Below are positions 8,847-58,598 of a DNA stretch of 64,000 bases, piece by piece. This DNA is from Elusimicrobiota bacterium (GTDB lineage Bacteria; Elusimicrobiota; Elusimicrobia; UBA1565; UBA9628), in the NCBI GenBank assembly GCA_027452025.1, contig DAIDHI010000080.1, positions 58 to 64,057 of the forward strand, written 5' to 3'. How positions within the stretch are numbered: position 1 is the stretch's first letter; each line of letters opens with the position of its first letter. Made by a program: the position numbers and the translations under genes. Under the pieces are notes generated by a model. The model worked only from the letters and a program-made list of their open reading frames with translations. It had not been told where the DNA came from and did no database searches.

Positions 8847-11561
8847 CTATGCGCCTTTGCTCACCTTCTCGAGAGTCAGCCAGCGGTTGGTGCCCGCGAA
8901 CTTTTGGTGCATGCGCGTGCGCGGCTCGCCGTGGGGTGCTCCGAGCTCGGCCACCTGCAAGTCGGCCAGCGCCTCCAGGCCCTTCTTCTTGAACTCGCGC
9001 AGCGAGGCCTCGAGAGCCATGCCCACTGTGCGGAAGGCCAGCAGCGTCGAGAATTGCAGGACGTAGCCGAGACCGCCGAGCTCCTCGTTGGCGATGAGCC
9101 GGCCCTCTTGCTTGGCCTTGCCCCAATGCAGCGAGGGGGAGAGATTGAAGCCCAGCATCTGATCCGGGAAATACTTGTGCACGCCTTGGGCGAAGGCCCT
9201 CGGCCCGTCGATGCCGGTGTCGTTGAACTCGGCCCAAATGACGTCCACGCCCAGAGACGCCGCCTCCAGGGCCCGCGCGATCGCGTGGTCGACGCCCGGC
9301 CCGCGCCCCCCCGGCACGGCGCCGTCCACGGCGTCGGTGCGCGCGATCACGACGAGGTCCGTCTCCGTCGCCTGGGCGGCGGCCTTGACGGCGATGAGCT
9401 TCTCGATCCACTTGTGGGTAGGTACGAGCACCTTGTCTCGCTTGCTGCCGTGATGGGCGATGATGTGGCCGCACGTGCGCTCGGCCGGATCCTGGTCCTC
9501 GAGATGCACGCCGGCGGCGCCCGCGCGGATGAGCTCGCGCGCCAGCGTGAATGTCTGCGTCGGCCCGCCGAAGCCGGCCTCGATGTCGGCGAAGATCGGA
9601 GGCGCGGCCAGGACCTCGCCGTCGCGGTCGTAGAAGTGTCGGTCGCGCGTGCCCTCGATGCCGCGCAGGAGCTCCTGCACCAGCGAGACCATGGAATGTG
9701 AAGGATATATCCCGATGTCTGGATACATGTTGTGGGCGACGGCCAGCTGCCAGCCGCTGGCGTAGATCGCCTCGAAGCCGAGCTCGGTCAGCAGCGACGC
9801 CGTCACGGCGTCGTAGGCCCCCGCCGTGTGGAGGTAGGACTCCGCCGGATCGCTCCGCCGCCGGGCGAAGCGCGCCTTGAGCAGCGCCCTCAGCTTCTGC
9901 GCCGGATGCGTTTTTTCAAGCGGCGCATACATCTTCGCGAACTGCGCCGCGGGATAGGTCCACTTCTTGAAACCTTCGCTGGGAACGGCCGCCGTCTCGC
10001 TGATCATATCTTGGCTCCATTGGCTGGCGCGCTCATAGCGTCGCTCCAGCGCCTCTCTTTGTGCGCGCTCGCCGTTCTGGCGCTGCGCGCGCAGATCCTT
10101 GAAAATCTTCTTCAGCTCCTCGTCGAACCAGCCCGCGACGAGCTCGCGCGTGACGCGCTCTCCCTCCGCGGCCGCGACGGCGTGCCTGATGCGCTGCGCG
10201 ACCATCAGCCGGTAAATCCGGTCCGTCGCCAGATCCTCCATGAAGTTGCCGATGAGGTCGCCGTGCCGGTCGTAGCCTTTGATCATCCGAGCGCCGAGCC
10301 CCGAGAGCACGCCGAATCGATATTCGATCATGGTCCGGATCGCGTCCTTGGTCCCGGCGACGGTGATCGCCCCGATCCCGGTCGGCGCGGGAGTCAGATC
10401 GGGCTTGACCTCGGCGCGCGCGGGAAACGAATGGAGCTGGTTGGGGGCGGGGAATTGGGAAATGGCGGCCTCGTGTTGATCGGGATGCCCGGTCCAAGCC
10501 CCGTCGAAGCCGCAATCCGCTTCATTCTTCTTGTCCGCGGCCAGCCGCTCCATGGCTCGTCCGTTGACCGCGGCATCGCCGCGGTCGGGAAAGAGCGCCG
10601 TCATGCCCCCGATCGCCAGCGCCCCTCGCCGATGGCAGATCTCGACGAGCCGGCGGCGAACATTCTGAAAAAAAGGGATGTCGTGCGGAATCGTGTTACG
10701 GTCCGGCAGGATCCAGCCCGGGTCGGCGAGCTTGAACTCGAGGAGGCTGGCCATATAGTCCCAGCGGCCCAAATTGAGGCCGATCGCGTGTCGGCGAGCC
10801 TCGTAGAGGATCTCCTCGATCTGATAAGCTGCGGGCAGCGACTCGATAAGATACATGATTTTCGTCGTTCCCTCCGGCACGCCGATCGCCGCCTCCATCG
10901 CGGCCAGCGCGTCCGAAAACCACCGCGCCTCGGCGGCCGATTCCACTTTCGGGATGTAGAATCCGAGCTTAGCCTGCAGCCCCGGCGAGTGGACCGCCGC
11001 TTTACGCAGGTCCGCCGTCGGGAAAAAGACCGCGACCATGTCGAAGAGCGAGGCCGACACAATCTCTCCCGGGACGGCTCGCGTTTCGTCGAGATGCAGG
11101 CCGCGGGGGCGGTAATACATAGCCTGAGCGCTCGGCTTGACGCGGGCGGTCTTGCCCGTTTGGGGGTCGGCATAGGCGAGCGTGCCGCGAATGGCCAAGA
11201 CGGTGTTTTCTTGGGCCGTCCGCACGTGCTCCCACTCGGGCGAGATGGAGTCCTCTCCATCCGGCATGCATCCCGGATCGTCGGCGTTGCACATGCCGAC
11301 CAGGATCTTCGCGTTGTCGGCCGGACCGGTGATCTGATTGCGCTGGTCCTTGGCCCAGTCCGGCAGCCGGATCTTCCAGGCCCCGCTCGTCGCCTCCGAT
11401 TCCGGGAGGTAGTCGGGCATCCGTCCTGCGCGCGCGGACGCCAGGGCCGCGCGGCGCTGCTGCAACAGGGCCTGGCGCCTAGGCTCGAAGCGCCTGTGGA
11501 GAGGCAGCAGGAACCCGCGCAAGTCATCCGGAACAATCGCGACGCTTTGTGTCGTTTTCAT
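8847..11561 (-). CDS. bifunctional malate synthase A / isocitrate lyase fusion (MS N-terminal, ICL C-terminal)
   Basis: Residues about 1-540 align with AceB (ITGP, RGLHL, GLNLGRWDY, ETLPA-like LIESLPA). Residues about 590-904 align with AceA (YASGWQLAVA, ADIEAGFGG, GVHLEDQ, TCGH in place of KKCGH, ARTDA). Single uninterrupted 904-codon frame. Confidence 0.85.
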   Translation of the reverse strand: MKTTQSVAIVPDDLRGFLLPLHRRFEPRRQALLQQRRAALASARAGRMPDYLPESEATSGAWKIRLPDWAKDQRNQITGPADNAKILVGMCNADDPGCMPDGEDSISPEWEHVRTAQENTVLAIRGTLAYADPQTGKTARVKPSAQAMYYRPRGLHLDETRAVPGEIVSASLFDMVAVFFPTADLRKAAVHSPGLQAKLGFYIPKVESAAEARWFSDALAAMEAAIGVPEGTTKIMYLIESLPAAYQIEEILYEARRHAIGLNLGRWDYMASLLEFKLADPGWILPDRNTIPHDIPFFQNVRRRLVEICHRRGALAIGGMTALFPDRGDAAVNGRAMERLAADKKNEADCGFDGAWTGHPDQHEAAISQFPAPNQLHSFPARAEVKPDLTPAPTGIGAITVAGTKDAIRTMIEYRFGVLSGLGARMIKGYDRHGDLIGNFMEDLATDRIYRLMVAQRIRHAVAAAEGERVTRELVAGWFDEELKKIFKDLRAQRQNGERAQREALERRYERASQWSQDMISETAAVPSEGFKKWTYPAAQFAKMYAPLEKTHPAQKLRALLKARFARRRSDPAESYLHTAGAYDAVTASLLTELGFEAIYASGWQLAVAHNMYPDIGIYPSHSMVSLVQELLRGIEGTRDRHFYDRDGEVLAAPPIFADIEAGFGGPTQTFTLARELIRAGAAGVHLEDQDPAERTCGHIIAHHGSKRDKVLVPTHKWIEKLIAVKAAAQATETDLVVIARTDAVDGAVPGGRGPGVDHAIARALEAASLGVDVIWAEFNDTGIDGPRAFAQGVHKYFPDQMLGFNLSPSLHWGKAKQEGRLIANEELGGLGYVLQFSTLLAFRTVGMALEASLREFKKKGLEALADLQVAELGAPHGEPRTRMHQKFAGTNRWLTLEKVSKGA

Positions 11562-30629: not shown

Positions 30630-32612
30630 TCAGCTGGCCGCGGCGGAAAACGCGGCGAAATCGCTCATGCGAGGCATCTTGCGCACATAGGCGACGGCCT
30701 GCATCCGGTCGAGCGCGAGGCGCTGGGCGACCGGCAGGCTCGACATGGGCATGGCCAGGAAAAGGAAAGAGTCGTCCTCTTCGAAGACCCAGCGCCGCTT
30801 GACGAGGTCTGCGAGCGCCCGGCGCACGCGCTTGGCCGAGCAGCGGGGAAACTTTTCTTGGCAGGCCCGCAGGACGCCGGGGAAGGGACGGATCTCGTCG
30901 CAGGCTTCCAGGATCGCGGCCTCAAGGCCCGTGACCAGGCGCTGCCGGTGCTCGATGCGCCGGGAAAGCCCGAGCGGACGCGAGTCGTAGACCTCCATGA
31001 AGCCGAGGCCCTTGCGATAGGCGAAATAGTTCTTCTGGTAGATCCGCTGCCAATGGTCGAATATCGGGCGTATCACGGGCTCGGCGTAGTCAGCCGGATC
31101 CGGCTGCCCTTCGACGCTCGGCGCCTCGAAGAAGTAGGCGATCTCGCCGCGCTTGAAGCGCGGCTCTGGGTAGAGGAAACGGTATTCCTCCATAGGCACG
31201 GGCTCCCGCAGCCCGAAGCGCCGCCAGTCGAAGTAGTAGGGGCTGAAGCGGTCGACCCGGATGACGTGGGCGTAAAACGGCGGCTGCAGGTGCGTCGCCG
31301 CCGCCATCGTATCGGCGATCCTGCGGTACTCGTCGGGCGACTCGCCGGGAAAGCCCCACAGCATCCCCCACGTCAGCTGAATGCGGCCCGCGCAGGCCTT
31401 GAGCGCCTGGAGGTTTTGGATGGTCTTGACGCCCTTGCGCATCAGCTTGAGGACGGGCGTGCTGAAGCTCTCGATGCCCGCTTGGATCGCCAGGATTCCG
31501 GCCTCGTGAAGAGTCTCGATCTGGGCCGCCGTCAAGTTCGCCTTGGTCTCGAAAAAAACGTGCCACTCGAGCTTGTGCTTCTTGCGAAACTCCGCCAGGA
31601 CGGCGGTGAGGCTGGTGAGGTGCTCCACGCTCAGGATGTTGTCGCAGGCATGCAGCCGGTAGGTCTTGTATCTCTCGAAGAGGAAGGCGATCTCGGCGGC
31701 GACGGCCTGCGCCGGCTTGGCGCGGAACGTCATGCCGTCGCGGTTGAGCCCGCAGAACGTGCAGTGCTGCTTCTGCCCCCACCAGCATCCGCGGGAGGCC
31801 TCGAAAGTCACCTGCGGCGAGACCCACGATGCCATGCCCGAGGCCTCAAGCTCACGGAAATAGTCGTCGTGGTCGGGAACTGGCACGCGGCGCATGTCGG
31901 CCAGGCGCGTCTCAGCGGGGTTTCGGGAGACGACGCCCTCGCCTGTCCGCGCCGAGACATGCGGCATCCCCTTCGGGAGCCGGCCGGAGCGGATGTGCCG
32001 CAGCAGCGCCGGAAACGCCTCCTCGGCCTCGCCTTCGACGACGTAGTCGACCCACTCGCAGCCCTTGAGCGTCGCCACCCCCATCTCGCCGTCGCAATTG
32101 GCTCCGCCGAGGACGATCGTCGTTTTCGGATGCTTGCGCTTGATGAGGCGGGCCAGCGCCAGAGAGGCGATGTGATTGTGGAACATGCTGCTGAAGCCGA
32201 CGACGTCGTAGCGCCCCCAGGGGACGTCGGCCAGGCAATGCTCGAGGAAAGCCGGCACGTCGTCGCGCACGAGCCTGCGCAGGCGCTCGCGCGGAAATTT
32301 TCCAAGGTTCTTGGCGAACACGGGCTCGGCGAGGACGTCCTCGAGCTCGTCAGGCAGCTCCTTGAGGCCGCCCGGGCCGAAAAGATGATAGGCGAAGGCC
32401 CACTGCGCGAAATGCCCGTAGGGAGCGAGCGCGAAGGCGTCGAGAAGGTCGTCGGCCCACCGGCCGAAGCGCAAGTTGAGGTAGTGGACGTCGCAAGGCA
32501 TCCCTTCACGCGCGAGGACGCTTTTGAGCACGCCGACTCCGAGCGGAGGCCGGTCGGGCGCGGCCCAAGGCATGACGACCAAGGCGACGCGGAGGCTGCG
32601 CGGTTTGGACAT
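30630..32612 (-). CDS. B12-binding domain radical SAM protein
   Basis: N-terminal B12-binding-like domain (LRVALVVMPWAAPDRPPLGVGVL). Radical SAM core with CWWGQKQHCTFC. Start moved to MSKPRSL because the upstream part of the long ORF would overlap the divergent oxygenase gene. Confidence 0.8.
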   Translation of the reverse strand: MSKPRSLRVALVVMPWAAPDRPPLGVGVLKSVLAREGMPCDVHYLNLRFGRWADDLLDAFALAPYGHFAQWAFAYHLFGPGGLKELPDELEDVLAEPVFAKNLGKFPRERLRRLVRDDVPAFLEHCLADVPWGRYDVVGFSSMFHNHIASLALARLIKRKHPKTTIVLGGANCDGEMGVATLKGCEWVDYVVEGEAEEAFPALLRHIRSGRLPKGMPHVSARTGEGVVSRNPAETRLADMRRVPVPDHDDYFRELEASGMASWVSPQVTFEASRGCWWGQKQHCTFCGLNRDGMTFRAKPAQAVAAEIAFLFERYKTYRLHACDNILSVEHLTSLTAVLAEFRKKHKLEWHVFFETKANLTAAQIETLHEAGILAIQAGIESFSTPVLKLMRKGVKTIQNLQALKACAGRIQLTWGMLWGFPGESPDEYRRIADTMAAATHLQPPFYAHVIRVDRFSPYYFDWRRFGLREPVPMEEYRFLYPEPRFKRGEIAYFFEAPSVEGQPDPADYAEPVIRPIFDHWQRIYQKNYFAYRKGLGFMEVYDSRPLGLSRRIEHRQRLVTGLEAAILEACDEIRPFPGVLRACQEKFPRCSAKRVRRALADLVKRRWVFEEDDSFLFLAMPMSSLPVAQRLALDRMQAVAYVRKMPRMSDFAAFSAAAS

Positions 32613-32657
32613 TTTGTTGCAAGGGGACGTCGCTGAAGTATTATAGTATATCGCCCT

Positions 32658-33209
32658 ATGGAGATCGTCGAGGAAGCCAGCGATATTTTCAGCTTTCAGC
32701 TCCTCTCGCCGAGCTATTGCCAAAAACTCGTCCGGTGGGCTTCGCGGGACCTCCGGTGGAATCGCGGGCGCGTGTACGCCGGTCCGCGGCGCCTGCAGGA
32801 CGCCGCCTCCCGCCGCTGCCTGGAGCGCACGGTCGCCGGCCTGCCCCCTCCCTGGAACGAGCTGGCGCAGGCTTGCCGCGAAAAGGCGCTTTCCGCGGCG
32901 CGGCTGTGCTGGCGCGAGCGCTTCAGGCGGCTGACCGGAGCGCGTCTGGTGCGCTACGACCCCGGCGGCTATTTCAAGATGCATTGCGACTTCCTCCCCA
33001 GCCTGCGGGTCAAGCCGCGCTTCCTGAGCCTGGTCTGCTATCTCAACGAAGACTTCTCGGGCGGGCGCACGGCCTTCCCGCGGCAAGCCCACGACATCGT
33101 CCCAAAGACCGGGAAAGCCGTCCTCTTCCCGTCCTCGATCACGCACCCTCACGAAGCCCAGGCCGTCCGAGAGGGGACCCGCTACGTGATCGTGGCCTGG
33201 GTCGAATGA
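32658..33209 (+). CDS. 2OG-Fe(II) oxygenase (prolyl-4-hydroxylase-like)
   Basis: YFKMHCDF ... ITHPHEA His-x-Asp...His facial triad spacing. RYVIVAWV. Confidence 0.75.
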   Translation: MEIVEEASDIFSFQLLSPSYCQKLVRWASRDLRWNRGRVYAGPRRLQDAASRRCLERTVAGLPPPWNELAQACREKALSAARLCWRERFRRLTGARLVRYDPGGYFKMHCDFLPSLRVKPRFLSLVCYLNEDFSGGRTAFPRQAHDIVPKTGKAVLFPSSITHPHEAQAVREGTRYVIVAWVE

Positions 33210-37565: not shown

Positions 37566-38084
37566 ATGGCGGCCTCAAAAGTCGTTTTGCTCGTCGGCCA
37601 CGGGGGAATCCCCAAGGATTGCCCGCCGCAGCTCGTCTCCGAGTTCAAGCGCGAGGAGGCCCGGGCGGCCGGAAAGCCCTCCGCGCGCCTCCTCGAGCTC
37701 GACGCCCGCCTGCGCCAATGGCCCCGGACGCCGGAAAACGACCCCTATAAGCCCGGCTTGGAGGCCGTGGCGGCCTCCCTCGCCGCGGCCCTGCCGGAGC
37801 ACGACGTCGTCACCGCCTACAACGAATTCTGCGCGCCAAGCCTCGAGCAGGCCTTCGACGAGGCCGTGGCGGGCGGCGCCCGCCAGATCATTGTGATCAC
37901 CACCATGTACACGCGCGGGGGCATCCACAGCGAAAAGGAAATCCCAGCGATCCTGGAGGGCCTGCGCCGGCGCCATCCGGGAGTCGAGGCCCGCTACGTC
38001 TGGCCCTTCGATGCCGCGGCGATCGGGGAGTTCCTGGCCCGGGAAGTGCGCCGTACCGAGACGGACGCGCCGGCCCCGGCATGA
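37566..38084 (+). CDS. sirohydrochlorin chelatase CbiX-like
   Basis: VVLLVGHGGIPKD and second-half His region typical of small CbiX/SirB chelatases. Only the last 173 codons of the long track ORF are used. Confidence 0.65.
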   Translation: MAASKVVLLVGHGGIPKDCPPQLVSEFKREEARAAGKPSARLLELDARLRQWPRTPENDPYKPGLEAVAASLAAALPEHDVVTAYNEFCAPSLEQAFDEAVAGGARQIIVITTMYTRGGIHSEKEIPAILEGLRRRHPGVEARYVWPFDAAAIGEFLAREVRRTETDAPAPA

Positions 38085-39865
38085 AGCTCTGGCTGACCTT
38101 GGCCGCGCTCCTGGCAGCCGCGACGCCCGCGCAAGCTTTCTTCTCCCACGCCCGAAAGGCCGCTTCCCCGCCGGCCGCGCCCGCGCCGCCGCCCGAACCC
38201 CTCGATCCGCTGACGACGGCCGAGATCGACGGCGCGGCGCAGGCGCTGCGCGACTCGCGGCTTTTCAGCGATTCCGCCGTCTACCTTTCCATCGCCCTCC
38301 AGGAGCCGTCCAAAGACGAGCCGGGCGCGGGCAAAAGGCTCGCCGCCGCCGTCATCTATGACCGCGCGCGCCGCGAGACCTCGGAGGCCGTCGTCGACGT
38401 CGCCAACCGCAAGCTCGAGTCGTGGCGCCTGGTCCCCGGCATAGAGCCCGGGCTTTCCGACGAGGAGCTCTCGCGGGCGCGGAAACTGGCGTTGTCCGAC
38501 TCCCGCTTCAAGGCGGCGATGGCGGCGCGCGGCCGCAAGACCTGGGACGATCTCGAGGTCGACGGCTGGTCGCCCGGGCCGCTCGACGCGGCGCGCAACT
38601 CGCCGCACCGGGTGGCGCGTCTGGACTTCTACGTGCCCGCGGCGCGCGGCCGCGTCCTCATCGACGGGCTGCAGGCGCTGGCCGACCTGACCGAGGGCAC
38701 GGTCGTCGAGCTGCTCGACGCCGGCGGGCCGCCTCTGCCGCCGCCGGCCCAGGCCCAGGCCCCGGCCCCCGCGCCGCCGCCGCAGCCGGCCAAGAAGAAG
38801 AAAAAACGGGAGGAAGCCCCCGCGCCTGCGGCGCCCTCCTACCCGTTCGAGGTCGCCGGCCACGAACTGCGCTGGCGAGGATGGACGCTGCGCTACGCGC
38901 TGACGCCGCGCGAAGGGCTCGTCCTCTACGAGGTCTCGCGCGACGGCCGGGGGATCGCCGACCGGGCGAGCCTTTCCGAGACGTTCGTCGTCTACGGCGA
39001 CGCGCGGCCGCAGTGGGCCGACCGCTCGGTTTTCCAGGAAGGCGAGCGCGGCCTGGGCCTGCGCGATATCCCGCTCGATCCCGCCCTGGACGCTCCCTCG
39101 CAAGCCGCCTTTTTCGACGAACCGGGCCCGGGGCCGGACGGCCGGGGCCGGATGCTGACGCGCGCCGTCGCCGTCTTCGAGCGAGACGCCGGCCGCGGAG
39201 CCGTCCGCCGCCTCAAGGAGCTCGTCCTCGAATCCAAGGCGCAGGCCGGACCCGAGACCTACGTCACGCGCTGGACCCTGGGCGACGACGGCGAGCTCGA
39301 CGCCGGCGTCGACGTCTCGCAAGACGACCCGGAGGCGCCGCCGCACCAGCATTTCTTCAATTTCAGGGTGGATTTCGACGTCGACGGCAGCACCGACTCG
39401 GTGGCCGAGCTGGAGGCCGCGCCCGGACGGATGACCCTGCTGTCGACGCCCCTGGAAAACCGCTCCCAGGCCCGTCGCGACGTCGACGAGGCGGCGGGCC
39501 GCCGGTGGCTCGTGACGGCGTCCTCCCCCTCGGCCGACGCCTCCCGAGGCTACCTGATCATCCCGGAGGGCAACGCGGCGCCGCTTTCGCCCGCCTTCTC
39601 GCCCGCGCGCCGCGCCGCGCCCTTCATCGGTCACCAGCTTTGGATCACGGCCTACCGCCCCGACGAGCTTTACGCGGCCGGAGAGTTCCCGGGCCGCCGC
39701 GCGCGCGCCGGAGGCGTCGAGCGCTGGACCCAGCGCGACGAGCCGATCCGCGACGCAGACCTCGTCGTCTGGTACACGCTGGGAGCCACGCATCTGCCCA
39801 GGGCCGACGGCTCCGCCCGCCGCCCGCTTTCCTGCCGCCTGCGCCTGGTCCCCGCCGGGCGCTAG
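38081..39865 (+). CDS. copper amine oxidase-like secreted protein (TPQ consensus absent)
   Basis: HQHFFNFRVDFDVDG matches the CuAO copper-His / RLDxDVDG signature. No T-x-x-N-Y-(D/E)-Y topaquinone motif at the expected position. Poly-Lys/Pro low-complexity insert. Confidence 0.5.
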   Translation: MKLWLTLAALLAAATPAQAFFSHARKAASPPAAPAPPPEPLDPLTTAEIDGAAQALRDSRLFSDSAVYLSIALQEPSKDEPGAGKRLAAAVIYDRARRETSEAVVDVANRKLESWRLVPGIEPGLSDEELSRARKLALSDSRFKAAMAARGRKTWDDLEVDGWSPGPLDAARNSPHRVARLDFYVPAARGRVLIDGLQALADLTEGTVVELLDAGGPPLPPPAQAQAPAPAPPPQPAKKKKKREEAPAPAAPSYPFEVAGHELRWRGWTLRYALTPREGLVLYEVSRDGRGIADRASLSETFVVYGDARPQWADRSVFQEGERGLGLRDIPLDPALDAPSQAAFFDEPGPGPDGRGRMLTRAVAVFERDAGRGAVRRLKELVLESKAQAGPETYVTRWTLGDDGELDAGVDVSQDDPEAPPHQHFFNFRVDFDVDGSTDSVAELEAAPGRMTLLSTPLENRSQARRDVDEAAGRRWLVTASSPSADASRGYLIIPEGNAAPLSPAFSPARRAAPFIGHQLWITAYRPDELYAAGEFPGRRARAGGVERWTQRDEPIRDADLVVWYTLGATHLPRADGSARRPLSCRLRLVPAGR

Positions 39866-51803: not shown

Positions 51804-51832
51804 TTGACAACCCAAGTTCTCCCTTATTAGTA
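51804..51832 (+). promoter_or_regulatory. sigma70-like promoter (TTGACA-N17-TTAGTA) in AT-rich region upstream of the regulator/cluster
   Basis: TTGACA at 51804-51809. TTAGTA at 51827-51832. Local AT-rich island in a 68% GC genome. Confidence 0.4.
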
Positions 51833-51862
51833 TTTTCAGAACTTATTGAAACAATAGAAACC

Positions 51863-52378
51863 ATGAGCGACAGGCTTAAGGCGGCGAAGGCGCGGTTCGT
51901 GTCCACCTGGGGCGAGATGGCGTCCCATTGGGGCATCAACAAGACGATGGCGCGCATCCATGCGCTGCTCATCGCCTCCGACGCCGCGCTCTCGGTCGAC
52001 GAGATCATGGCAACGCTCTCGATCAGCCGCGGTAACGCCAGCATGAACCTGCGGGCGCTGATGGACTGGGGCCTGGTCAGGCGCGTTTCGGTGGGCAGCG
52101 AGCGGCGCGAGTATTTCCAGAGCGAGAAGGACGTCTGGAACATGTGCTGCCGCATCGCGCGCGAGCGCAAGAAGCGGGAGATCGAGCCCGTGATCGGCGC
52201 TCTGGAGGAATGCCTGCGCGAAGCCGGGGAAGGCCAGGACTCGGCGGCCTTCCGGCGCCGGACCAAGGAGCTCTTGGAGCTGGTCAAGACCCTCGATTTC
52301 GTGCTCGGCAAGGTCGCCGCGCAAGAGAAGAACGCCGTCATGCCGCGCGTGCTGACGCTGCTCAAGGCCATGTCATGA
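51863..52378 (+). CDS. MarR/GbsR-family transcriptional regulator
   Basis: Winged-helix pattern (SVDEIMATLSISRGNASMNLRALMDWGLVRRV) as in GbsR/MarR-like regulators. Confidence 0.65.
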   Translation: MSDRLKAAKARFVSTWGEMASHWGINKTMARIHALLIASDAALSVDEIMATLSISRGNASMNLRALMDWGLVRRVSVGSERREYFQSEKDVWNMCCRIARERKKREIEPVIGALEECLREAGEGQDSAAFRRRTKELLELVKTLDFVLGKVAAQEKNAVMPRVLTLLKAMS

Positions 52379-53319
52379 CTCCCGCTTCTTTATTAAAGGT
52401 GGAGGACTCGCTCTCCCGCGTTCGCGCGGGCCTGGAGAGCCGCGCCCTGCGCATCGAGGGCCGGGTCGGCCGGGAGCTGGCGGCCTTCGTGGCCCGCCCG
52501 GGAAAGATGCTGCGCTCGCGCTTCTGCCTGCTTTTGGGCGGCGCGCTGGGCGTGCCGCGGGACAAGGCCGAGGCGGCCGCCCGGGCGCTGGAGCTGGTGC
52601 ACAACGCCAGCCTCCTCCATGACGACTGCATCGACGAGGCCACGCTTCGCCGCAGCCGGCCCACGCCCAACGCCCTTTTCAACATCCCGACGGCGCTGCT
52701 CATCGGCGATCTGGCTTTTTCCCAAGGCCTCGAGGAGGCCGTGGACGTTTCGCCGAGCGCGGCCAAGCTCCTGGCCGCGGCGGTGCGCGAGATGTCGGTC
52801 GGGGAGCTTCAGGAGGAGTTCCTCAAGGGCGACGCCGACTTGACCGTCGACGCCTACATCGGCGTCTGCTCGCGCAAGACCGGCGCGCTCTTCGAGTGGG
52901 CCGGGGCGGTGCTCTCGGAGCTGAGCCCCTTTCCCCACGAGCAGGCGGACCCGCCGCGGCTGGCCTGCGCGGCCGGCATCCTCCTTCAGGTCGTCGACGA
53001 CATCCACGACTACACCCTGGGCGAGCGGGTGTCGGGCAAGGACGAGGGCCAGGACGTCAAGAACCGGCGGCTGACGCTGCCCTGCCTCTACGCCCTGGCC
53101 GACGCGCGGGCCCGCGAGGAGTTTCTCAAGCTTTGGCGAGGCGGCGACGCGACGGGAGTGGGACGGTTCCTCGTCGAGGGCGGGTTCGTCGCGAAGGCGC
53201 GCGGGAAGGGGCGGGAGCTGGCCGACTCCATGACGGCGATGGCGCGCGCCCTGCCCTGCCGCGCCGAGGCCTCCCAATTGGCCTTCTTCATCGACCTGCT
53301 GGTCAAGAGGGAATTTTGA
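52375..53319 (+). CDS. polyprenyl diphosphate synthase (trans-isoprenyl diphosphate synthase family)
   Basis: First Asp-rich motif LLHDDCIDE and second VVDDIHDY. ATGA overlap with the regulator stop. Confidence 0.85.
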   Translation: MTPASLLKVEDSLSRVRAGLESRALRIEGRVGRELAAFVARPGKMLRSRFCLLLGGALGVPRDKAEAAARALELVHNASLLHDDCIDEATLRRSRPTPNALFNIPTALLIGDLAFSQGLEEAVDVSPSAAKLLAAAVREMSVGELQEEFLKGDADLTVDAYIGVCSRKTGALFEWAGAVLSELSPFPHEQADPPRLACAAGILLQVVDDIHDYTLGERVSGKDEGQDVKNRRLTLPCLYALADARAREEFLKLWRGGDATGVGRFLVEGGFVAKARGKGRELADSMTAMARALPCRAEASQLAFFIDLLVKREF

Positions 53320-53320
53320 G

Positions 53321-53761
53321 ATGTCTTACGAGGCCCTGGTCAAGAAAGCGTGGGCGAGCGGGACGTTCAAGCTCGACGAGGCCGAGGCCGGAAAGGCCGA
53401 TCCGTCGGCGGCCGTCAGTCGCGAGGCCGTGCGCCGGGAGATGGAACAGATCGCGGAGAGGGAGACCTGGGACGCCGCAAGCTGCTTCTCCGCCCATAAA
53501 GAGGGAATCATGAAACTAGCTCCGTTCGTGAAGTTCCGTGAAGAGAAGTTCGGCGCCGTGCTCTTTGAGACGCGCTCGGAGAAGGTCTATACGCTCAGCC
53601 CGAGCGGCGCCGCCGTCGTGCGGGAAGTGGTCGCCGGGGCCACTTCCAGCGACCTGCCGGCCAGGCTCAAGCAGAAGTTCGAGGACCCCACCGGGAAGAT
53701 GGAGCAGGAAGCGGCAAGCTTCCTGGCCCAGCTCAAGGACAAGGGCCTCGTCGTCGAGTAG
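53321..53761 (+). CDS. PqqD/MftB-like RiPP recognition element protein with about 65-aa N-terminal extension
   Basis: C-terminal VKFREEKFGAVLFETRSEKVYTLSPSGAAVVREVVAG...AASFLAQLKDKGLV matches the PqqD/MftB pattern. SD aagaggga before the ATG. Confidence 0.65.
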   Translation: MSYEALVKKAWASGTFKLDEAEAGKADPSAAVSREAVRREMEQIAERETWDAASCFSAHKEGIMKLAPFVKFREEKFGAVLFETRSEKVYTLSPSGAAVVREVVAGATSSDLPARLKQKFEDPTGKMEQEAASFLAQLKDKGLVVE

Positions 53762-53767
53762 GGCGCC

Positions 53768-54739
53768 GTGACCGCGCAAGCTCCCGAAAGCGCGCCGCAG
53801 ACGGGCACCGAGGATCTCGGCGCCCCGCTCTACGTCGCCTGGCAGATCACCAACGAGTGCAACCTGGCCTGCCTACACTGCATCGAGGAGTCCGGGCCGG
53901 GAAAGGCCTTCAAGGACGAGCTGACCACCGAGGAGGCTTACCGCCTCATCGACCAGCTCGCGCAAGGCGAGGTGCCCTACGTCTCCTTCTCGGGCGGCGA
54001 GCCGATGGTCCGGCCGGACTTCTTCGGCATGGTCGAGAGAATCACTCGGGGCGGCGTCGGGCTCAAGATCGAGACCAACGGCCATTACCTAACCGCTGAC
54101 AACTGCCGCCGCCTCAAGGACCTGGGCGTCAAGGCCGTCCAGGTCTCCCTCGACGGCGCCAGCCCCGCCTCGTTCAACAAGATGCGGGTCCACGGCCGCT
54201 TCGAGTCGGCGCTGGAAGGCATCGGCCGGCTGCGCGAGGCGGGCGTGCCGATCGAAATCAACTTCGTGCCGGCGAAGTTTAATATCCGCGAGATCGGCGC
54301 CGCCGTCGACTTGGCCTACCGGCTCGGGGCGTATTCGTTCTATACCGGCAAGCTGATGTATACCGGCAACGCCGTGCGCACCTGGGGCATCACCGCCCCC
54401 GACGAGGCGGAGTATCCCGCCTACTTCGCCGCGCTCAAGGAGAAGGCCAAGGAGTACGAAGGCCGCATGCGCGTCTACTACCACGAGATGGGGCTGCTCG
54501 AGGAGCTGCGCTACCGCCTGAAAAACCCCGCCGCCCTCTTCATCGTCCTGCCCAACGGCAAGGTCAAGCTCATCAACGCCCTGCCCTTTATCTGCGGCGA
54601 CCTGCGCCGCCAGAGCCTGGGCCAGGTCTGGCAGAGCTTCCAGCTCGCCTGGAAAAGCCCGCGGGTCAGCGCCTTCATCGACGAGCTCGCCGCCGACCCC
54701 TCGATCCTGTCTCGTCTGCACCGCTGGGAGGAGGTCTAG
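53768..54739 (+). CDS. radical SAM enzyme (PqqE/MftC/NirJ-like N-terminus, no SPASM cysteines), paralog 1
   Basis: APLYVAWQITNECNLACLHC CX3CX2C. SFSGGEP and KIETNG motifs. Single Cys in the C-terminal half. Confidence 0.8.
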   Translation: MTAQAPESAPQTGTEDLGAPLYVAWQITNECNLACLHCIEESGPGKAFKDELTTEEAYRLIDQLAQGEVPYVSFSGGEPMVRPDFFGMVERITRGGVGLKIETNGHYLTADNCRRLKDLGVKAVQVSLDGASPASFNKMRVHGRFESALEGIGRLREAGVPIEINFVPAKFNIREIGAAVDLAYRLGAYSFYTGKLMYTGNAVRTWGITAPDEAEYPAYFAALKEKAKEYEGRMRVYYHEMGLLEELRYRLKNPAALFIVLPNGKVKLINALPFICGDLRRQSLGQVWQSFQLAWKSPRVSAFIDELAADPSILSRLHRWEEV

Positions 54740-54745
54740 GCGGAC

Positions 54746-55633
54746 ATGAGCCTCGTCGGCAAGGCCGCGGCGCTGGTGCGCTACCGCTTCTTTCTCTACG
54801 CGGGCCTCCTGCCCTATCTGCTGGGCGCGGCCTGGGCCTACGGCGTGGACCGGCAGTTTCGGCCCGGCGTCTTCTGGCTCGGCCTGCTCGGGATCTTCCT
54901 CGCCGTCGTCGGAGTCGAGAGCTTCAACGAGTATTTCGACGCGAAGATGGGGACCGACCGGGTCTTCAATCCCGACGCCGACGAGAACATCCCGGAGTGG
55001 ATGTTCTCGCTCGGCGTGGCCGCCTTCGCGCTGGCCGCGGCGGTCGGCTTCTACCTGGCCTGGGAAGGCGGCTGGCCCGTGGTCCTCTATACTCTGCTCG
55101 GCGGCGCCGCCGCCGTCTGGTACGTGGGCCCGCCCGTGCGCTGGGTCTACCGGGGCCTTGGCGAGGCCGTGATCGGGCTGTCCTACGGCCCGTGGATGAC
55201 GCTGGGCTCGGTGCAGCTGCACACGCACCGTTTTTCCTGGGGCGCGCTGGCCGCGTCGCTCGTCCCCGGCCTGCTGATCATGGCGCTGGCCGTGGTCAAC
55301 AACATCCCCGATTATCATCAGGACCGGCTGGTCGGCAAGAGGAACCTCGTCGTGAGGCTGGGCCGGGAGAAGGGACGGCTGCTCTACCTCGCCTTGTCGG
55401 GGCTGGGCTTGGCCGTGATCGTCGCCGGAGCGGCGGCGGGGACGTTCCCGCGCCTTTGCCTGCTGGCCGCGCTGCCCGGCGCCGCCCTTTGGTGGGCGAG
55501 CCTGCGCGCCGGCCGGGACACCTGGGACACGCCCCGCGCCTTCCTGCCGGCCATCAAGAGCATCGTGCAATGCTACGCCTTGACGACGCTGATCTTCGCC
55601 TTGGCGGTGGCGTTCGGAGCGCGCCTGGCATGA
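54746..55633 (+). CDS. UbiA-family aromatic prenyltransferase
   Basis: 8-9 TM helices. Asp-rich motifs NEYFDAKMGTD and NNIPDYHQD. Confidence 0.85.
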   Translation: MSLVGKAAALVRYRFFLYAGLLPYLLGAAWAYGVDRQFRPGVFWLGLLGIFLAVVGVESFNEYFDAKMGTDRVFNPDADENIPEWMFSLGVAAFALAAAVGFYLAWEGGWPVVLYTLLGGAAAVWYVGPPVRWVYRGLGEAVIGLSYGPWMTLGSVQLHTHRFSWGALAASLVPGLLIMALAVVNNIPDYHQDRLVGKRNLVVRLGREKGRLLYLALSGLGLAVIVAGAAAGTFPRLCLLAALPGAALWWASLRAGRDTWDTPRAFLPAIKSIVQCYALTTLIFALAVAFGARLA

Positions 55634-56592
55634 GGATCGATTCCCTGAGCGCCCCGGCGATGGTCGCCTGGCAGCTCACGCGCGACTGCAACCTCGCCTG
55701 CCTGCACTGCTGCACGGACTCCGCGCCGGGCCGGGCGCTGCCCGGCGAGCTGCCGCGCGAGAGAGCCCTGTCTCTGGCGCGCGAGATCGCCGAGGCGGGC
55801 GTGCCTTACGCGCTGATCGCCGGCGGCGAGCCGAGCTTGGTCTCGCATTTCGGCGAGGTCTGCGCCGCGCTTTCCCAGGGCGGCGTCTGGCTCAAGGTCG
55901 AGACCAACGGCCAGAGCTTCGACGTCTCGGCGCTGCGCGGCCTGCGCGTGCGCTCGGTGCAAGTCTCGCTCGACGGCGCGACTCGGCGCGTCTACGCCCG
56001 ACAGCGGCCGGGCGGCGACCTGGAGAAGGCCCTGGCCTGCGGCCGCGCCGTGCGCGCCGCCGGGCTGCCCCTGGAGATCACGTTCGCCCCCACTCTCCTC
56101 AACATCGACGAGGCCGGCGCCGTCATCGACTTGGCCCTGGAGCTCGGAGCCTTCCGCTTCAACACCGGAAGGCTCATGCGATTGGGCACCGCCGCCAAGC
56201 TCTGGCAGCGCCTGGAGCCTTCGCAGGAGCGCTACGAAAGGTTCCTCGCGCTGCTCGAGCGGCGCGAGCGCGAGCTGGCCGGACGCCTGGAGCTGTGCTT
56301 CCGGCCGTTTTCGCTGCCCGAGGATGCCCGGGCCCTCAGACGCGAGCCCCCGGGGACCTTGCTGATCCTCCCCGACGGCCGCGTGAAAGTGGCCGCGCCG
56401 CTGCCCTACACCTGTTTCGACGTGACGAAACGTCCGTTTCTCGAGGCGTGGGACGCGTATCGCAAGTCTTTCGGCGATCCGCGCGTCCTGCGCGCCTTCG
56501 AGCGCCTCGCCGCCGACCCCGCGTCGTCGGCGAAGGCCAATGAGTGGGTCGACCTGGAGTCCGTCGCCTTCGATTTGCCGGCCGTGGTCTGA
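55629..56592 (+). CDS. radical SAM enzyme, paralog 2
   Basis: MVAWQLTRDCNLACLHC. IAGGEP, KVETNG. ATGA overlap with the UbiA stop. Confidence 0.8.
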
Positions 56593-56612
56593 CCGGCAGA
56601 CAGGAGTCAAGC

Positions 56613-56735
56613 ATGAACGACCAGAAGAAGACCGTGACCGTCGTGAAGGCCGAGCCGAAGCTCGTTTGGCAGACCCCCTCCCTGGAGGAGGTCTCCGATC
56701 GGGTGATGGCGCAGCCTTACATCCGGTTCACGTGA
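56613..56735 (+). CDS. 40-aa candidate precursor peptide (PqqA-like leader)
   Basis: MNDQKKTVTVVKAEPKLVWQTPSLEEVSDRVMAQPYIRFT. caggag SD 7 nt upstream. Located between radical SAM paralogs 2 and 3. Stop overlaps GTG of paralog 3. Confidence 0.5.
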   Translation: MNDQKKTVTVVKAEPKLVWQTPSLEEVSDRVMAQPYIRFT

Positions 56736-57700
56736 CGCACGGGAGAGGGGCGTCCGTGGGCGACTACGGCGCCCCTCTCTTTCTGGCCTGGCAGCTGACC
56801 AACCGCTGCACGGGCAGCTGCCTGCACTGCTGCGAGGAATCCGGGCCCGACAAGGCTTGGCCCGACGAGATGAGCCGCGAGCAGTGCTTGTCGCTGGCCC
56901 GGCAGATCGCGCGCATGGGCGTGCCTTACGTGGCCTTCGGCGGCGGCGAGCCGATGGGCTCGCCCCACGTCTGGGAGATCTTCGAGATCCTGGCGCGCGG
57001 CGGCGTCGAGATCAAGATCGAGACCAACGGGCTGCTCCTGGACGACGCGGCCTGCGACCGGCTCAAGGCCTTGAACGTCGCCTGCGTGCAGATCTCCATC
57101 GACGGGGCGACGGCCGCCGTTCACGAGGGCCTGCGTCCCGGCTCCGGCTACGCGCCGGCCTGGGAGGCGATCGACCGCCTGGTCTCGCGCGGCCTGGGTC
57201 CCGAGCTCGTTTTCATCCCCACCAAGCTCAACGTCTCCGGCGCCGTCGCCGTCTATGAGCAAGCGGCGCGGCGGGGCGTGCGCACGTTCGTGACGGGGCC
57301 GCTCATGCGCCTGGGGCGGGCCGCCGCGGCCTGGGAGGCCCTGGCCTGCTCCGAGGAGCAATGGGCCGCCGCGGCCGAGGCCCTGCGGCAGGCCTCGCTG
57401 CGCGAAAAAGGCCCGCGCCTGGCGCTCTATCCTTGGGGCATCCAGGCCGAGATGAAGACCCGCGCCGAAAGCCCGCAGGCCATGGTGCTGGTCGTGCCCA
57501 ACGGCCGGGTCAAGCTCCTCAACGCCCTGCCCTTCGCCGCCGCCGACCTCAAGACCGAGACGCTGGCCGCGGCCTGGCCGAAGGTCGCCGCCGCCTGGCG
57601 GCGGCCCGAGGTCCAGGACTTCGTGCGCCGCGCGCAAAGCGACCCCGGTCTTCTGCGCCACGCCAACGAGTGCTGGGACGTGGCCCTCGCCGGCGCCTAA
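56731..57700 (+). CDS. radical SAM enzyme, paralog 3
   Basis: APLFLAWQLTNRCTGSCLHC. FGGGEP, KIETNG. GTG start overlapping the peptide stop (GTGA). Confidence 0.75.
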
Positions 57701-57744: not shown

Positions 57745-58191
57745 ATGGCGGCTCTCTTTCCTCACGGCTGGATCCATTACTTGGCGGGCGGCCTGCTCAT
57801 CGGCTGCGGGGTCTCGCTGATCTATCTCTGCACCGGCGTGGCCGCCGGCACGAGCTCTTTTTTCAGCGCGCAGTGGTCCTGGTTCTCGCGCCTGGGCTTT
57901 TTTAGGCAGGAGCGCTGGCGCGAGGAACGCGGCTGGCGGCTGATCTACGCCGCCGGCCTGGTCGCCGGAGCGCTGCTTTGGCGGCTCGAGACCGGCGTCT
58001 GCCTGACGACGTCCGTGGAGCCGCGCAGGCTCCTCGTCGGCGGCCTGCTGGCCGGCTTCGGTGCGCGCCTTTCGGGCGGCTGCACGGCCGGCCACGGCAT
58101 CTGCGGCCTCGCCTCTCTCAAGAAGGAGTCTTTCGTGGCCGTTCCCGTCTTCCTGCTCACGGCGATCCTCGTGGCGAGGCTCCTGCCGTGA
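57745..58191 (+). CDS. YeeE/YedE-family membrane protein (sulfur-compound transporter half)
   Basis: LSGGCTAGHGICG signature. 4 TM. Confidence 0.7.
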   Translation: MAALFPHGWIHYLAGGLLIGCGVSLIYLCTGVAAGTSSFFSAQWSWFSRLGFFRQERWREERGWRLIYAAGLVAGALLWRLETGVCLTTSVEPRRLLVGGLLAGFGARLSGGCTAGHGICGLASLKKESFVAVPVFLLTAILVARLLP

Positions 58192-58598
58192 AGCGCGCCG
58201 CCGCGGCGCTCTTGGGCGGCGTCCTCTTCGGCCTGGGCCTGGCCGTTTCCGGCATGGTCCGGCCCGAGACCGTCCTCGATTTCCTCCACCTGCGCGACAT
58301 GGGCCTTTTGCTCGTGCTCGGCGGGGCGGCGGGCGTCAGCCTCCTCGCCTTCCAGCTCGCGCCGCGGCTGCTCGGCCGGCCGGCGTTCGGAGGAAGCTTC
58401 GAGCCGCATCCCGGGCGCCTGAGCGGACGCACCTTCGCCGGCGCGGCGATCTTCGGGGCGGGCTGGGGCCTGTGCGGAGTCTGCCCGGGGCCGGCCGTGG
58501 CGGGCCTGGGCGCGGGCCTGACGGCGCTCTTGTGGTCCGTCGCCGGGCTCGCGCTCGGCGCCTGGCTGCACGGGCTCTATCAAGAGCTGGCCGGCTAG
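58188..58598 (+). CDS. YeeE/YedE-family membrane protein (second half)
   Basis: GWGLCGVCPG signature. GTGA overlap with the preceding gene. Confidence 0.7.
   Translation: MKRAAAALLGGVLFGLGLAVSGMVRPETVLDFLHLRDMGLLLVLGGAAGVSLLAFQLAPRLLGRPAFGGSFEPHPGRLSGRTFAGAAIFGAGWGLCGVCPGPAVAGLGAGLTALLWSVAGLALGAWLHGLYQELAG

Follow-up and report, generated by a model that had tools for sequence, protein, structure and literature searches.

A near-invariant small peptide encoded with a PqqD-domain protein, radical SAM enzymes and a MenA-like prenyltransferase in Elusimicrobiota and other phyla: a possible precursor of a prenylated cofactor

Redox cofactors made from peptides are rare, with pyrroloquinoline quinone (PQQ), mycofactocin and the protein-bound quinones as the main examples, and each discovery of such a cofactor opened a new area of redox biochemistry. 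In the PQQ system, the small precursor PqqA carries the leader motif W-x-x-P-x-x-x-[DE]-[VLI] and, 17 residues beyond the Trp, a Tyr; PqqD is a separate protein, and PqqE is a radical S-adenosylmethionine (SAM) enzyme. The precursor core is conserved, as for a cofactor. Mycofactocin is a redox cofactor that derives from the very C-terminal end of a small, conserved peptide, with a PqqD-like chaperone and the radical SAM enzyme MftC acting on it. We found the same combination of traits, including a PqqE-related radical SAM enzyme, in an operon on a 64,000-bp stretch (the whole of it referred to below as the window) of contig DAIDHI010000080.1 from a groundwater-type lineage of Elusimicrobiota. 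A preliminary description of this stretch had pointed to a 40-residue open reading frame (ORF) between radical SAM paralogues. We consider it very probable that this ORF encodes a genuine substrate peptide of the radical SAM and PqqD-domain proteins; the view that a peptide-derived moiety becomes polyprenylated is, taken as a separate claim, slightly favoured, and the combined picture of a substrate peptide with a polyprenylated product is on balance probable.

The peptide was encoded on the plus strand from ATG 56613 to TGA 56733–56735, and its 40 residues, MNDQKKTVTVVKAEPKLVWQTPSLEEVSDRVMAQPYIRFT, matched exactly those quoted in the preliminary description. Around the start codon the plus strand reads ..acaggagtcaagcATGAACGAC.. 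(ATG at 56613); the Shine–Dalgarno sequence reported earlier, caggag, was located at 56601–56606, with 6 nt between the end of AGGAG and the ATG. Homologue alignments and tail statistics divided the precursor (56613–56735) into a variable leader (residues 1–18), a recognition motif (W19–S28) and an invariant core (V31–T40, VMAQPYIRFT) ending at the stop codon. The longer ORF of 63 aa that had been noted does exist, starting at GTG 56544, but the additional part overlaps the 3′ end of the preceding radical SAM gene in a different frame. Among 21 related loci, this longer reading frame measured anything between 42 and 296 aa, whereas the ATG and the Shine–Dalgarno sequence are conserved. In an alignment of the window with these 21 loci, 8/40, 9/40 and 27/40 columns were variable at codon positions 1, 2 and 3, respectively, and the corresponding values for the last ten codons were 0/10, 0/10 and 6/10. 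Because the variation was concentrated at third codon positions, the ORF is, by its substitution pattern, a translated sequence under strong purifying selection.

A search with the peptide alone returned 56 homologues, nearly all of 36–41 aa, with a few longer gene predictions, and all with the identical C-terminus VMAQPYIRFT. The profile gave 99 matches with E ≤ 1e-3 (39 with E ≤ 1e-10) against 1.84 billion representative proteins (50% identity); nearly all of these 99 representatives were 30–78 aa long and had unrelated N-termini and the same tail. A broader profile retrieved 2,718 clusters (90% identity) from a word-indexed collection, and a metagenome scan for AQPYIRFT detected at least 600 stretches, 581 of which were confirmed. 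Among 189 distinct 24-residue tails, the first half was W(184)-x-x-P(186)-x-[LMI]-E(175)-[DE](188)-V(188)-[ST](189)-x-x, and the second half was [VI](188)-M(184)-A(188)-Q(187)-P(189)-Y(184; F 4, C 1)-I(189)-R(189)-F(189)-T(188)-stop, so that the pattern W..P...E[IV]...Y, the conservation of which had been proposed as a check, was present family-wide (see the W, P, [DE], V and Y counts). N-termini were hypervariable and the tail almost invariant, its amino acids being kept between GC-rich and AT-rich lineages despite differing DNA. The ten-residue core was essentially invariant in at least six phyla, with representatives from Elusimicrobiota, Omnitrophota, Planctomycetota, Thermodesulfobacteriota, Acidobacteriota and Burkholderiales. 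The hosts named by the sources were Elusimicrobiota, Omnitrophota, Planctomycetota, Thermodesulfobacteriota, Aminicenantia and Casimicrobiaceae; all named host genomes were metagenome-assembled, and every peptide entry was labelled “hypothetical protein”. No Pfam or NCBIfam (June 2026) model covers the family, and the window peptide had no match to these models even at E ≤ 10. Full-text literature searches, with subscription papers mostly outside their coverage, yielded nothing on the peptide (including the motif PYIRFT) and nothing on UbiA-type enzymes in pathways of radical SAM enzymes or of peptides that are made by ribosomes and modified after translation (RiPPs).

Regarding PqqA, the W-x-x-P...E-V segment described earlier as a PqqA-like leader motif was present and near-invariant, but the likeness was confined to ten residues and does not extend to PqqA membership. 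The Tyr 17 residues after the Trp, which had been compared with that of PqqA, kept an invariant spacing in the family (189 tails). The Glu of PqqA was missing, as already observed: the sequence is M-A-Q-P-Y, and Met occupied the Glu position in 184 of the 189 tails. Alignment with the PqqA model TIGR02107, suggested in the preliminary description, and with PF08042 gave no match of the window peptide even at E ≤ 10; among 62 diverse relatives, PF08042 matched two (best E 0.055) and TIGR02107 one (E 0.035), and the paeninodin-family lasso precursor model weakly matched 14 (best E 0.0043). In an hhalign profile–profile comparison, the PqqA side of which was four PqqA sequences entered by hand, which weakens the comparison, only the ten columns W-x-x-P-x-x-x-[DE]-[VL] aligned (P = 0.0036, probability 9%). 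Since the motif also weakly matches the lasso precursor model and the PqqA models were hardly matched, it is best taken for a generic motif that PqqD-type domains recognize; it is no sign that the peptide belongs to the PqqA family. The peptide is, as judged from its motif, PqqA-like at the recognition step, yet outside the PqqA family. The earlier proposal of related PqqD recognition with a different chemistry agrees with the constant co-location of the peptide with PqqD-domain and radical SAM genes and with the replacement of Glu by Met.

A true PqqA, from which PQQ or a closely similar soluble compound is made, would share the W-x-x-P motif, the Tyr 17 residues downstream and the adjacent PqqD and PqqE-like radical SAM genes; this explanation is refuted on its defining features and retains practically no probability. 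The window peptide was unmatched by the PqqA models, the Glu partner was an invariant Met, and the C-terminus was an invariant IRFT. The cassette lacked pqqB, pqqC and pqqF: neither PqqB nor PqqC domains were found in the window operon with Pfam and NCBIfam, whereas the PqqD domain was present. The radical SAM enzymes of the cassette, of which there are one or three paralogues, scored 47–90 bits with the PqqE model TIGR02109 (cut-off 381) and were devoid of the cysteines of SPASM auxiliary clusters. A MenA-like prenyltransferase, which the PQQ system does not have, was obligatory.

The window operon had the order marR, polyprenyl diphosphate synthase, pqqD, rSAM-A, ubiA, rSAM-B, peptide and rSAM-C (rSAM denoting the radical SAM genes), with gaps of 0–20 nt or ATGA/GTGA overlaps. 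This order recurred in approximately 20 Elusimicrobiota genomes. Another 93 loci, from metagenomes and other phyla, were read as far as each contig reaches. Within this reach only two arrangements were seen, with no exception among the 93: type 1, [MarR] [synthase] PqqD, rSAM-A, UbiA, rSAM-B, peptide, rSAM-C, and type 2, peptide, PqqD, one rSAM, UbiA, [synthase], where brackets mark optional genes. The co-location of the peptide with radical SAM and PqqD genes, proposed as a check in the preliminary description, was thus seen in the approximately 20 Elusimicrobiota genomes and in 93/93 further loci. As only the peptide, PqqD, rSAM and UbiA are common to both arrangements, the conserved core of the cassette is, on comparison of loci, these four components. 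Conserved co-location and a precursor with a variable N-terminus, a recognition motif and a conserved region are features of PqqD-dependent radical SAM peptide systems in general, to which the locus appears to belong.

The PqqD-domain protein, the putative peptide-recognition element (53321–53761, plus strand; PF05402, 37.8 bits against a cut-off of 23.4), carried its domain at residues 79–144, after an Elusimicrobiota-specific N-terminal extension of 63 aa, as seen from alignment with 83-aa orthologues. This extension (53321–53509) was conserved among Elusimicrobiota, with tblastn matches spanning residues 1–146, and was absent from the 82–98 aa orthologues of other phyla. NCBIfam matches of the protein were weak and below cut-off: the lasso PqqD model was the best, and the others were MftB and PqqD models. 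Lasso systems have in common with the cassette this best match and an aromatic-x-x-P-x-L leader motif, but neither a B2 leader protease nor an ATP-dependent lasso cyclase domain was found in any cassette examined, and the core had no macrolactam acceptor/donor pattern.

The three radical SAM paralogues were encoded on the plus strand: rSAM-A (53768–54739; PF04055, 92 bits), rSAM-B (55630–56592; PF04055, 68 bits), the start of which overlaps the ubiA stop (ATGA), and rSAM-C (56732–57700; PF04055, 85 bits; start set by locus comparison). All radical SAM enzymes had the CX3CX2C motif, CNLACLHC in rSAM-A, CNLACLHCC in rSAM-B and CTGSCLHCC in rSAM-C. Across lineages they formed three orthologous sets with 53–69% identity within a set, and the sets were 36–44% identical to each other or to the single type 2 enzyme; rSAM-B of the window had 38% identity to A and C and 53–58% to its orthologues elsewhere. 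No equivalog was reached, the best NCBIfam matches being MftC, AhbD and NirJ2 with 83–147 bits against cut-offs of 265–500. For rSAM-A these were AhbD, then NirJ2 and MftC, all below cut-off; for rSAM-C, MftC with 111 bits (cut-off 265). The closest solved sequences to rSAM-A were SkfB and, as second-best, PqqE (6c8v). We failed to find a Pfam SPASM domain in the window enzymes, rSAM-A included; a SPASM/twitch cysteine set was also not found, as no more than a single Cys (LPFICGD) was conserved towards the C-terminus, and rSAM-C had none. We infer that the radical SAM enzymes carry only the SAM-cleaving 4Fe–4S cluster.

Mycofactocin biosynthesis resembles the cassette further in that MftC was the top NCBIfam match of rSAM-B and rSAM-C and that the exact position of the C-terminus is conserved. 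However, the cassette peptide ends with RFT, not GVY; MftD, MftE and MftF were missing, and tailoring would proceed by prenylation instead of glycosylation. Matches to the mycofactocin models were 83–126 bits for TIGR03962 (cut-off 265) and 22 bits for MftB (cut-off 33), with no further mft domains.

The best match of rSAM-A, the heme b synthase AhbD, followed by NirJ2, would also fit tetrapyrrole modification, with AhbD/NirJ-like radical SAM enzymes, a prenyltransferase resembling heme O synthase and the peptide as a chaperone or regulator and not a substrate; NirDL/AhbAB-like, uroporphyrinogen or CcmH-like TPR genes occurred near some loci. We regard this as quite unlikely: the AhbD/NirJ matches fell far short of the cut-off (147 against 500 bits), the UbiA enzyme matched MenA models and not heme O synthase, heme genes were not consistently linked, and the PqqD domain together with the leader-type motif points to a peptide substrate.

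The membrane prenyltransferase of the UbiA family (54746–55633, plus strand; PF01040, 83 bits against a cut-off of 34) was MenA-like: its best NCBIfam matches were models of 1,4-dihydroxy-2-naphthoate polyprenyltransferase, all below cut-off (NF004751, 109 against 264 bits; TIGR00751, 63.5 against 102 bits), and its sole PDB sequence match was UBIAD1. The Asp-rich motifs of the window enzyme were NEYFDAKMGTD and PDYHQDRLVGKRN; the corresponding patterns NE[YF]FDxxxGTD and PD[YF]xxDxLVGKRN were kept by most of the lineages compared, but the divergent locus L037 had single acidic positions substituted. The gene was present in every cassette whose contig extends that far. An apparent UbiA plus Radical_SAM fusion in a long ENA contig (L124:8020-10004) was rejected as the result of frameshifts in the assembly; it is no real fusion.

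A trans-polyprenyl diphosphate synthase (52375–53319, plus strand; PF00348, 141 bits) was often joined to the cassette, in both architectures. Its best NCBIfam matches were hepta-, octa-, nona- and solanesyl-diphosphate synthases, but it reached none of the equivalog cut-offs. The motifs were DDCID and DDIHD, in the translation ..HNASLLHDDCID.. and ..VVDDIHD.., with Ala/Ser at positions −5/−4 before the first. By the chain-length rule, Ala/Ser at these positions marks long-chain (C30 and longer) enzymes, e.g., HepT and IspB. Since the small −5/−4 residues fit this rule, the synthase is predicted to be of the long-chain type.

These two enzymes could alternatively be ordinary menaquinone genes that share an operon with a system of peptide, radical SAM and PqqD proteins, the peptide product remaining unprenylated. 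The Asp-rich motifs, the closest families (MenA and UBIAD1), the long-chain determinants of a synthase similar to those making quinone tails, and neighbouring quinone-dependent respiratory complexes all resemble menaquinone side-chain attachment, and enzymes of the UbiA family are not known to us as modifying peptides. Against this, every cassette, across at least six phyla, had ubiA placed either between rSAM-A and rSAM-B or directly behind the single rSAM; the enzyme scored far below the MenA cut-offs given above; and no other men or mqn gene was linked in the cassettes examined. We therefore consider ordinary menaquinone genes improbable here. Because the UbiA enzyme is embedded in a peptide-modification cassette, its acceptor is probably not 1,4-dihydroxy-2-naphthoate.

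Downstream of the peptide gene, the GTG at 56732, which had been described as overlapping the peptide stop (GTGA), was in frame with rSAM-C, and this was confirmed by approximately 60 Elusimicrobiota-type loci: each of those compared had an in-frame ATG or GTG at −1, +2 or +4 of the peptide stop. A later start at GTG 56756, with GGAG of the hairpin described below as the Shine–Dalgarno sequence, was rejected, as approximately 15 loci have GTA, GCG or GGC at this position. Since the stop-touching start is universal and the later GTG is absent from these loci, GTG 56732 is regarded as the true start. In addition, orthologues in other lineages begin with M-x-G-R-[STA]-V-[DE]-[DE]-Y, and the rSAM-C residues RGASVGDY aligned with these N-termini. 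The GTGA overlap suggests translational coupling.

A 17-bp GC-rich hairpin (56742–56779, plus strand), followed by a T-rich run, lay directly after the peptide gene, in codons 4–16 of rSAM-C. Its RNAalifold energy was −36 kcal/mol, with compensatory changes in two pairs among Elusimicrobiota, and its single-sequence z-score was −3.4; a terminator scan flagged the inner stem. An equivalent hairpin with a TTTTTCTT tail was found at the same place in other lineages, where 83.6% of cells pair against 41–59% in slid controls and the covariation score was above 500/500 shuffles. The hairpin is probably an attenuator or a translation barrier favouring the peptide over the enzyme. Together with the stop/start overlap, it looks like a device that couples rSAM-C translation to that of the peptide while holding translation or transcription below peptide output. 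Another, small hairpin between rSAM-B and the Shine–Dalgarno sequence of the peptide (−5.9 kcal/mol, no covariation) was not supported.

The presence of a strong RNA hairpin immediately downstream, and the fact that the ORF is known here from sequence alone, would be compatible with an unmodified small protein or subunit, or with conservation that reflects an RNA element. This is very unlikely, as the hairpin is outside the ORF, variation within the ORF falls at third positions, and lineages of different base composition keep the same amino-acid tail with different DNA.

RiPP operons typically have an attenuator-like hairpin behind the structural gene, and the leader and core layout, the PqqD-type recognition domain and the radical SAM enzymes would likewise suit a conventional secreted RiPP, either a lipopeptide antibiotic or a prenylated pheromone similar to ComX, which is the precedent for bacterial peptide prenylation. 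As proposed here, a ribosomal peptide gains an isoprenoid in the ComX/ComQ system, and the operon there also has a gene with the polyprenyl synthase fold; however, in that system ComQ carries out the transfer itself and the ComX cores are hypervariable, whereas the cassette has a membrane UbiA enzyme as transferase, an optional synthase, a probably long chain and an invariant core. Antibiotic and pherotype cores diversify, unlike this core, which is the same across phyla. No protease, exporter or immunity gene recurred in the neighbourhoods examined, nor did a leader protease or sensor gene, and a long-chain synthase would anchor the product in the membrane without diffusion. A secreted RiPP is accordingly an unlikely explanation, slightly more so than ordinary menaquinone genes.

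In 10 of 12 annotated non-Elusimicrobiota loci, quinone-linked respiratory modules adjoined the cassette. The neighbours were SdhC (cytochrome b), SdhA and SdhB in L124; MtrB, MtrA, OmcA/MtrC, a NapC/NirT cytochrome and a NiFe hydrogenase in L126 and L031; MtrAB, cytochrome b561 and a Mo-oxidoreductase in L111; FrdA/SdhA and fumarase in L105; SdhA-like and CCG/Hdr-like genes in L040; and MtrB, MtrA-like and SdhB-like genes in L084, L069 and L085. In L125, an Nqr/Rnf-type operon on the same strand, the last gene of which was NqrF-like, ended 18 nt upstream of the cassette, and the prenyl synthase followed. L038/L039 and L042 departed from this pattern. The neighbourhoods support a role in membrane electron transfer, by association only.

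The Nqr/Rnf-type operon of L125 (L125:4602-13447) consisted of six genes, the first with only faint Fer4 matches and the last, the NqrF-like one, with Fer2, FAD_binding_6 and NAD_binding_1 domains, and it ran into the cassette and the synthase. It may encode a hybrid Rnf/Nqr complex co-expressed with the cassette.

With respect to the mechanism, the hairpin just 3′ of the peptide gene would probably keep peptide output above enzyme output. The PqqD-domain protein would bind W19-x-x-P22-x-L-E-E-V-S28 and present VMAQPYIRFT to the radical SAM enzymes. Tyr36, 17 residues after Trp19, would be the likeliest site of hydrogen abstraction or cross-linking, with Met32 at the place of the PqqA Glu. Other reactions are possible, namely, an aromatic-to-Cβ cyclophane on [YF]-I-R, a Met–Tyr link or an MftC-like C-terminal decarboxylation. 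The MenA-like UbiA enzyme would then attach a long polyprenyl chain from the adjacent synthase to the modified core or to an excised fragment; other possible prenyl acceptor sites are the hydroxyl group of Thr40, the carboxylate at the C-terminus, Arg38 or a centre that the radical SAM enzymes create.

The product would be membrane-embedded and have a housekeeping part in electron transfer, either as a carrier resembling a quinone or as a redox cofactor with a lipid anchor; it would not be an antibiotic or pheromone. A cofactor-like role is suggested because the ten core residues are invariant across phyla, as in PqqA and MftA, and retention in the membrane because a long polyprenyl tail is to be expected from the pairing of a MenA-like enzyme with a long-chain synthase. 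Owing to the UbiA enzyme, the synthase and the respiratory neighbourhoods, the likely product shifts from a soluble PQQ-like molecule to a polyprenylated membrane compound. That this product is a respiratory redox carrier is conceivable, although we hold it to be rather doubtful. More tentative still is the complete proposal, by analogy with known cofactors, that the cassette makes a previously unknown class of respiratory lipid cofactor in uncultured anaerobes of at least six phyla, with a peptide head carved by radical SAM enzymes and a polyprenyl tail added by the MenA-like enzyme; equally tentatively, this cofactor would be the carrier for fumarate reductase, Nqr/Rnf, Mtr/CymA-type and hydrogenase modules.

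Several points weigh against the proposed lipid cofactor. Every chemical step is inferred and rests on sequence. Enzymes of the UbiA family are, to our knowledge, not known to act on peptides, and auxiliary clusters, absent here, are typical of peptide-modifying SPASM/twitch enzymes. A sub-clade of tails ends with MAQPFIRFT, with Phe for Tyr (4/189 tails; L036:356-478 and proteins P0135, P0139, P0149 and P0152), and L036 keeps the whole cassette of peptide, PqqD, rSAM and UbiA; the phenol oxygen would thus be dispensable there, contrary to a Tyr-derived quinone ring or simple Tyr prenylation. The cassette contained no peptidase to release a small molecule. The neighbourhood evidence comes from related metagenomic lineages that are not phylogenetically independent. 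The cassette of the window was flanked by SDR, DUF4142 and YeeE/YedE genes, and respiratory modules were absent; those of other Elusimicrobiota were flanked by purH, ligA, nusB and rib genes, also with no respiratory modules. Nor did the remainder of the window contain men, mqn or ubi genes or respiratory complexes.

A Nuo operon supposed from gene size to lie downstream in Elusimicrobiota loci was discarded: the conserved genes there are purH, ligA, nusB and riboflavin genes, and they reflect ordinary synteny of close relatives. The YeeE/YedE region of the window (57745–58598, plus strand), coding for two adjacent sulphur-transport half-proteins (Sulf_transp and DUF6691), was rejected as part of the cassette: it follows the cassette in this window only, and none of the related loci had it. 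The first gene of the operon encoded a winged-helix regulator of the MarR/ArsR type (51863–52378, plus strand; PF12802 MarR_2, 29 bits), its stop overlapping the synthase start (ATGA); a MarR-like gene was located upstream of the cassette in many Elusimicrobiota loci. A promoter-like site, TTGACA, 18 nt, TAGTAT (51804–51833, plus strand), near-consensus and sigma-70-like by consensus scan only, was located 30 nt upstream of this gene; the scan gave two sites against 0.3 expected.

Elsewhere in the window, an 840-aa B12-binding radical SAM protein was encoded at 30630–33152 (minus strand), and L031 and L126 also had genes for such proteins, placed immediately upstream of the cassette and on the other strand; their proximity may be a coincidence or they may encode an accessory methylase. 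A 904-aa ORF (8847–11561, minus strand) had malate synthase domains in its N-terminal half and isocitrate lyase/PEP (phosphoenolpyruvate) mutase domains in its C-terminal half, so two glyoxylate-shunt enzymes appear to be fused in it. A copper amine oxidase homologue (38081–39865, plus strand; enzyme domain 202 bits) had no apparent relation to the cassette. This family carries the Tyr-derived topaquinone cofactor and is, as far as we know, unusual for an Elusimicrobiota genome.

The general kind of system, a PqqD-assisted radical SAM peptide system, is already known. The new features are the obligatory union with a MenA-like prenyltransferase, radical SAM enzymes with the SAM-cleaving cluster only, and the breadth and invariance of the family; we know of no peptide-modification pathway that uses a membrane prenyltransferase. 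The minimal version of four genes (peptide, PqqD, rSAM and UbiA) is suitable for heterologous expression. If the product were merely a prenylated lipopeptide, a UbiA-family enzyme acting on a peptide and peptide radical SAM enzymes with no auxiliary clusters would still be new. If it were a lipid-anchored redox carrier, the cassette would represent a new route to a respiratory cofactor, which could explain how quinone-dependent complexes are operated in many uncultured anaerobes.

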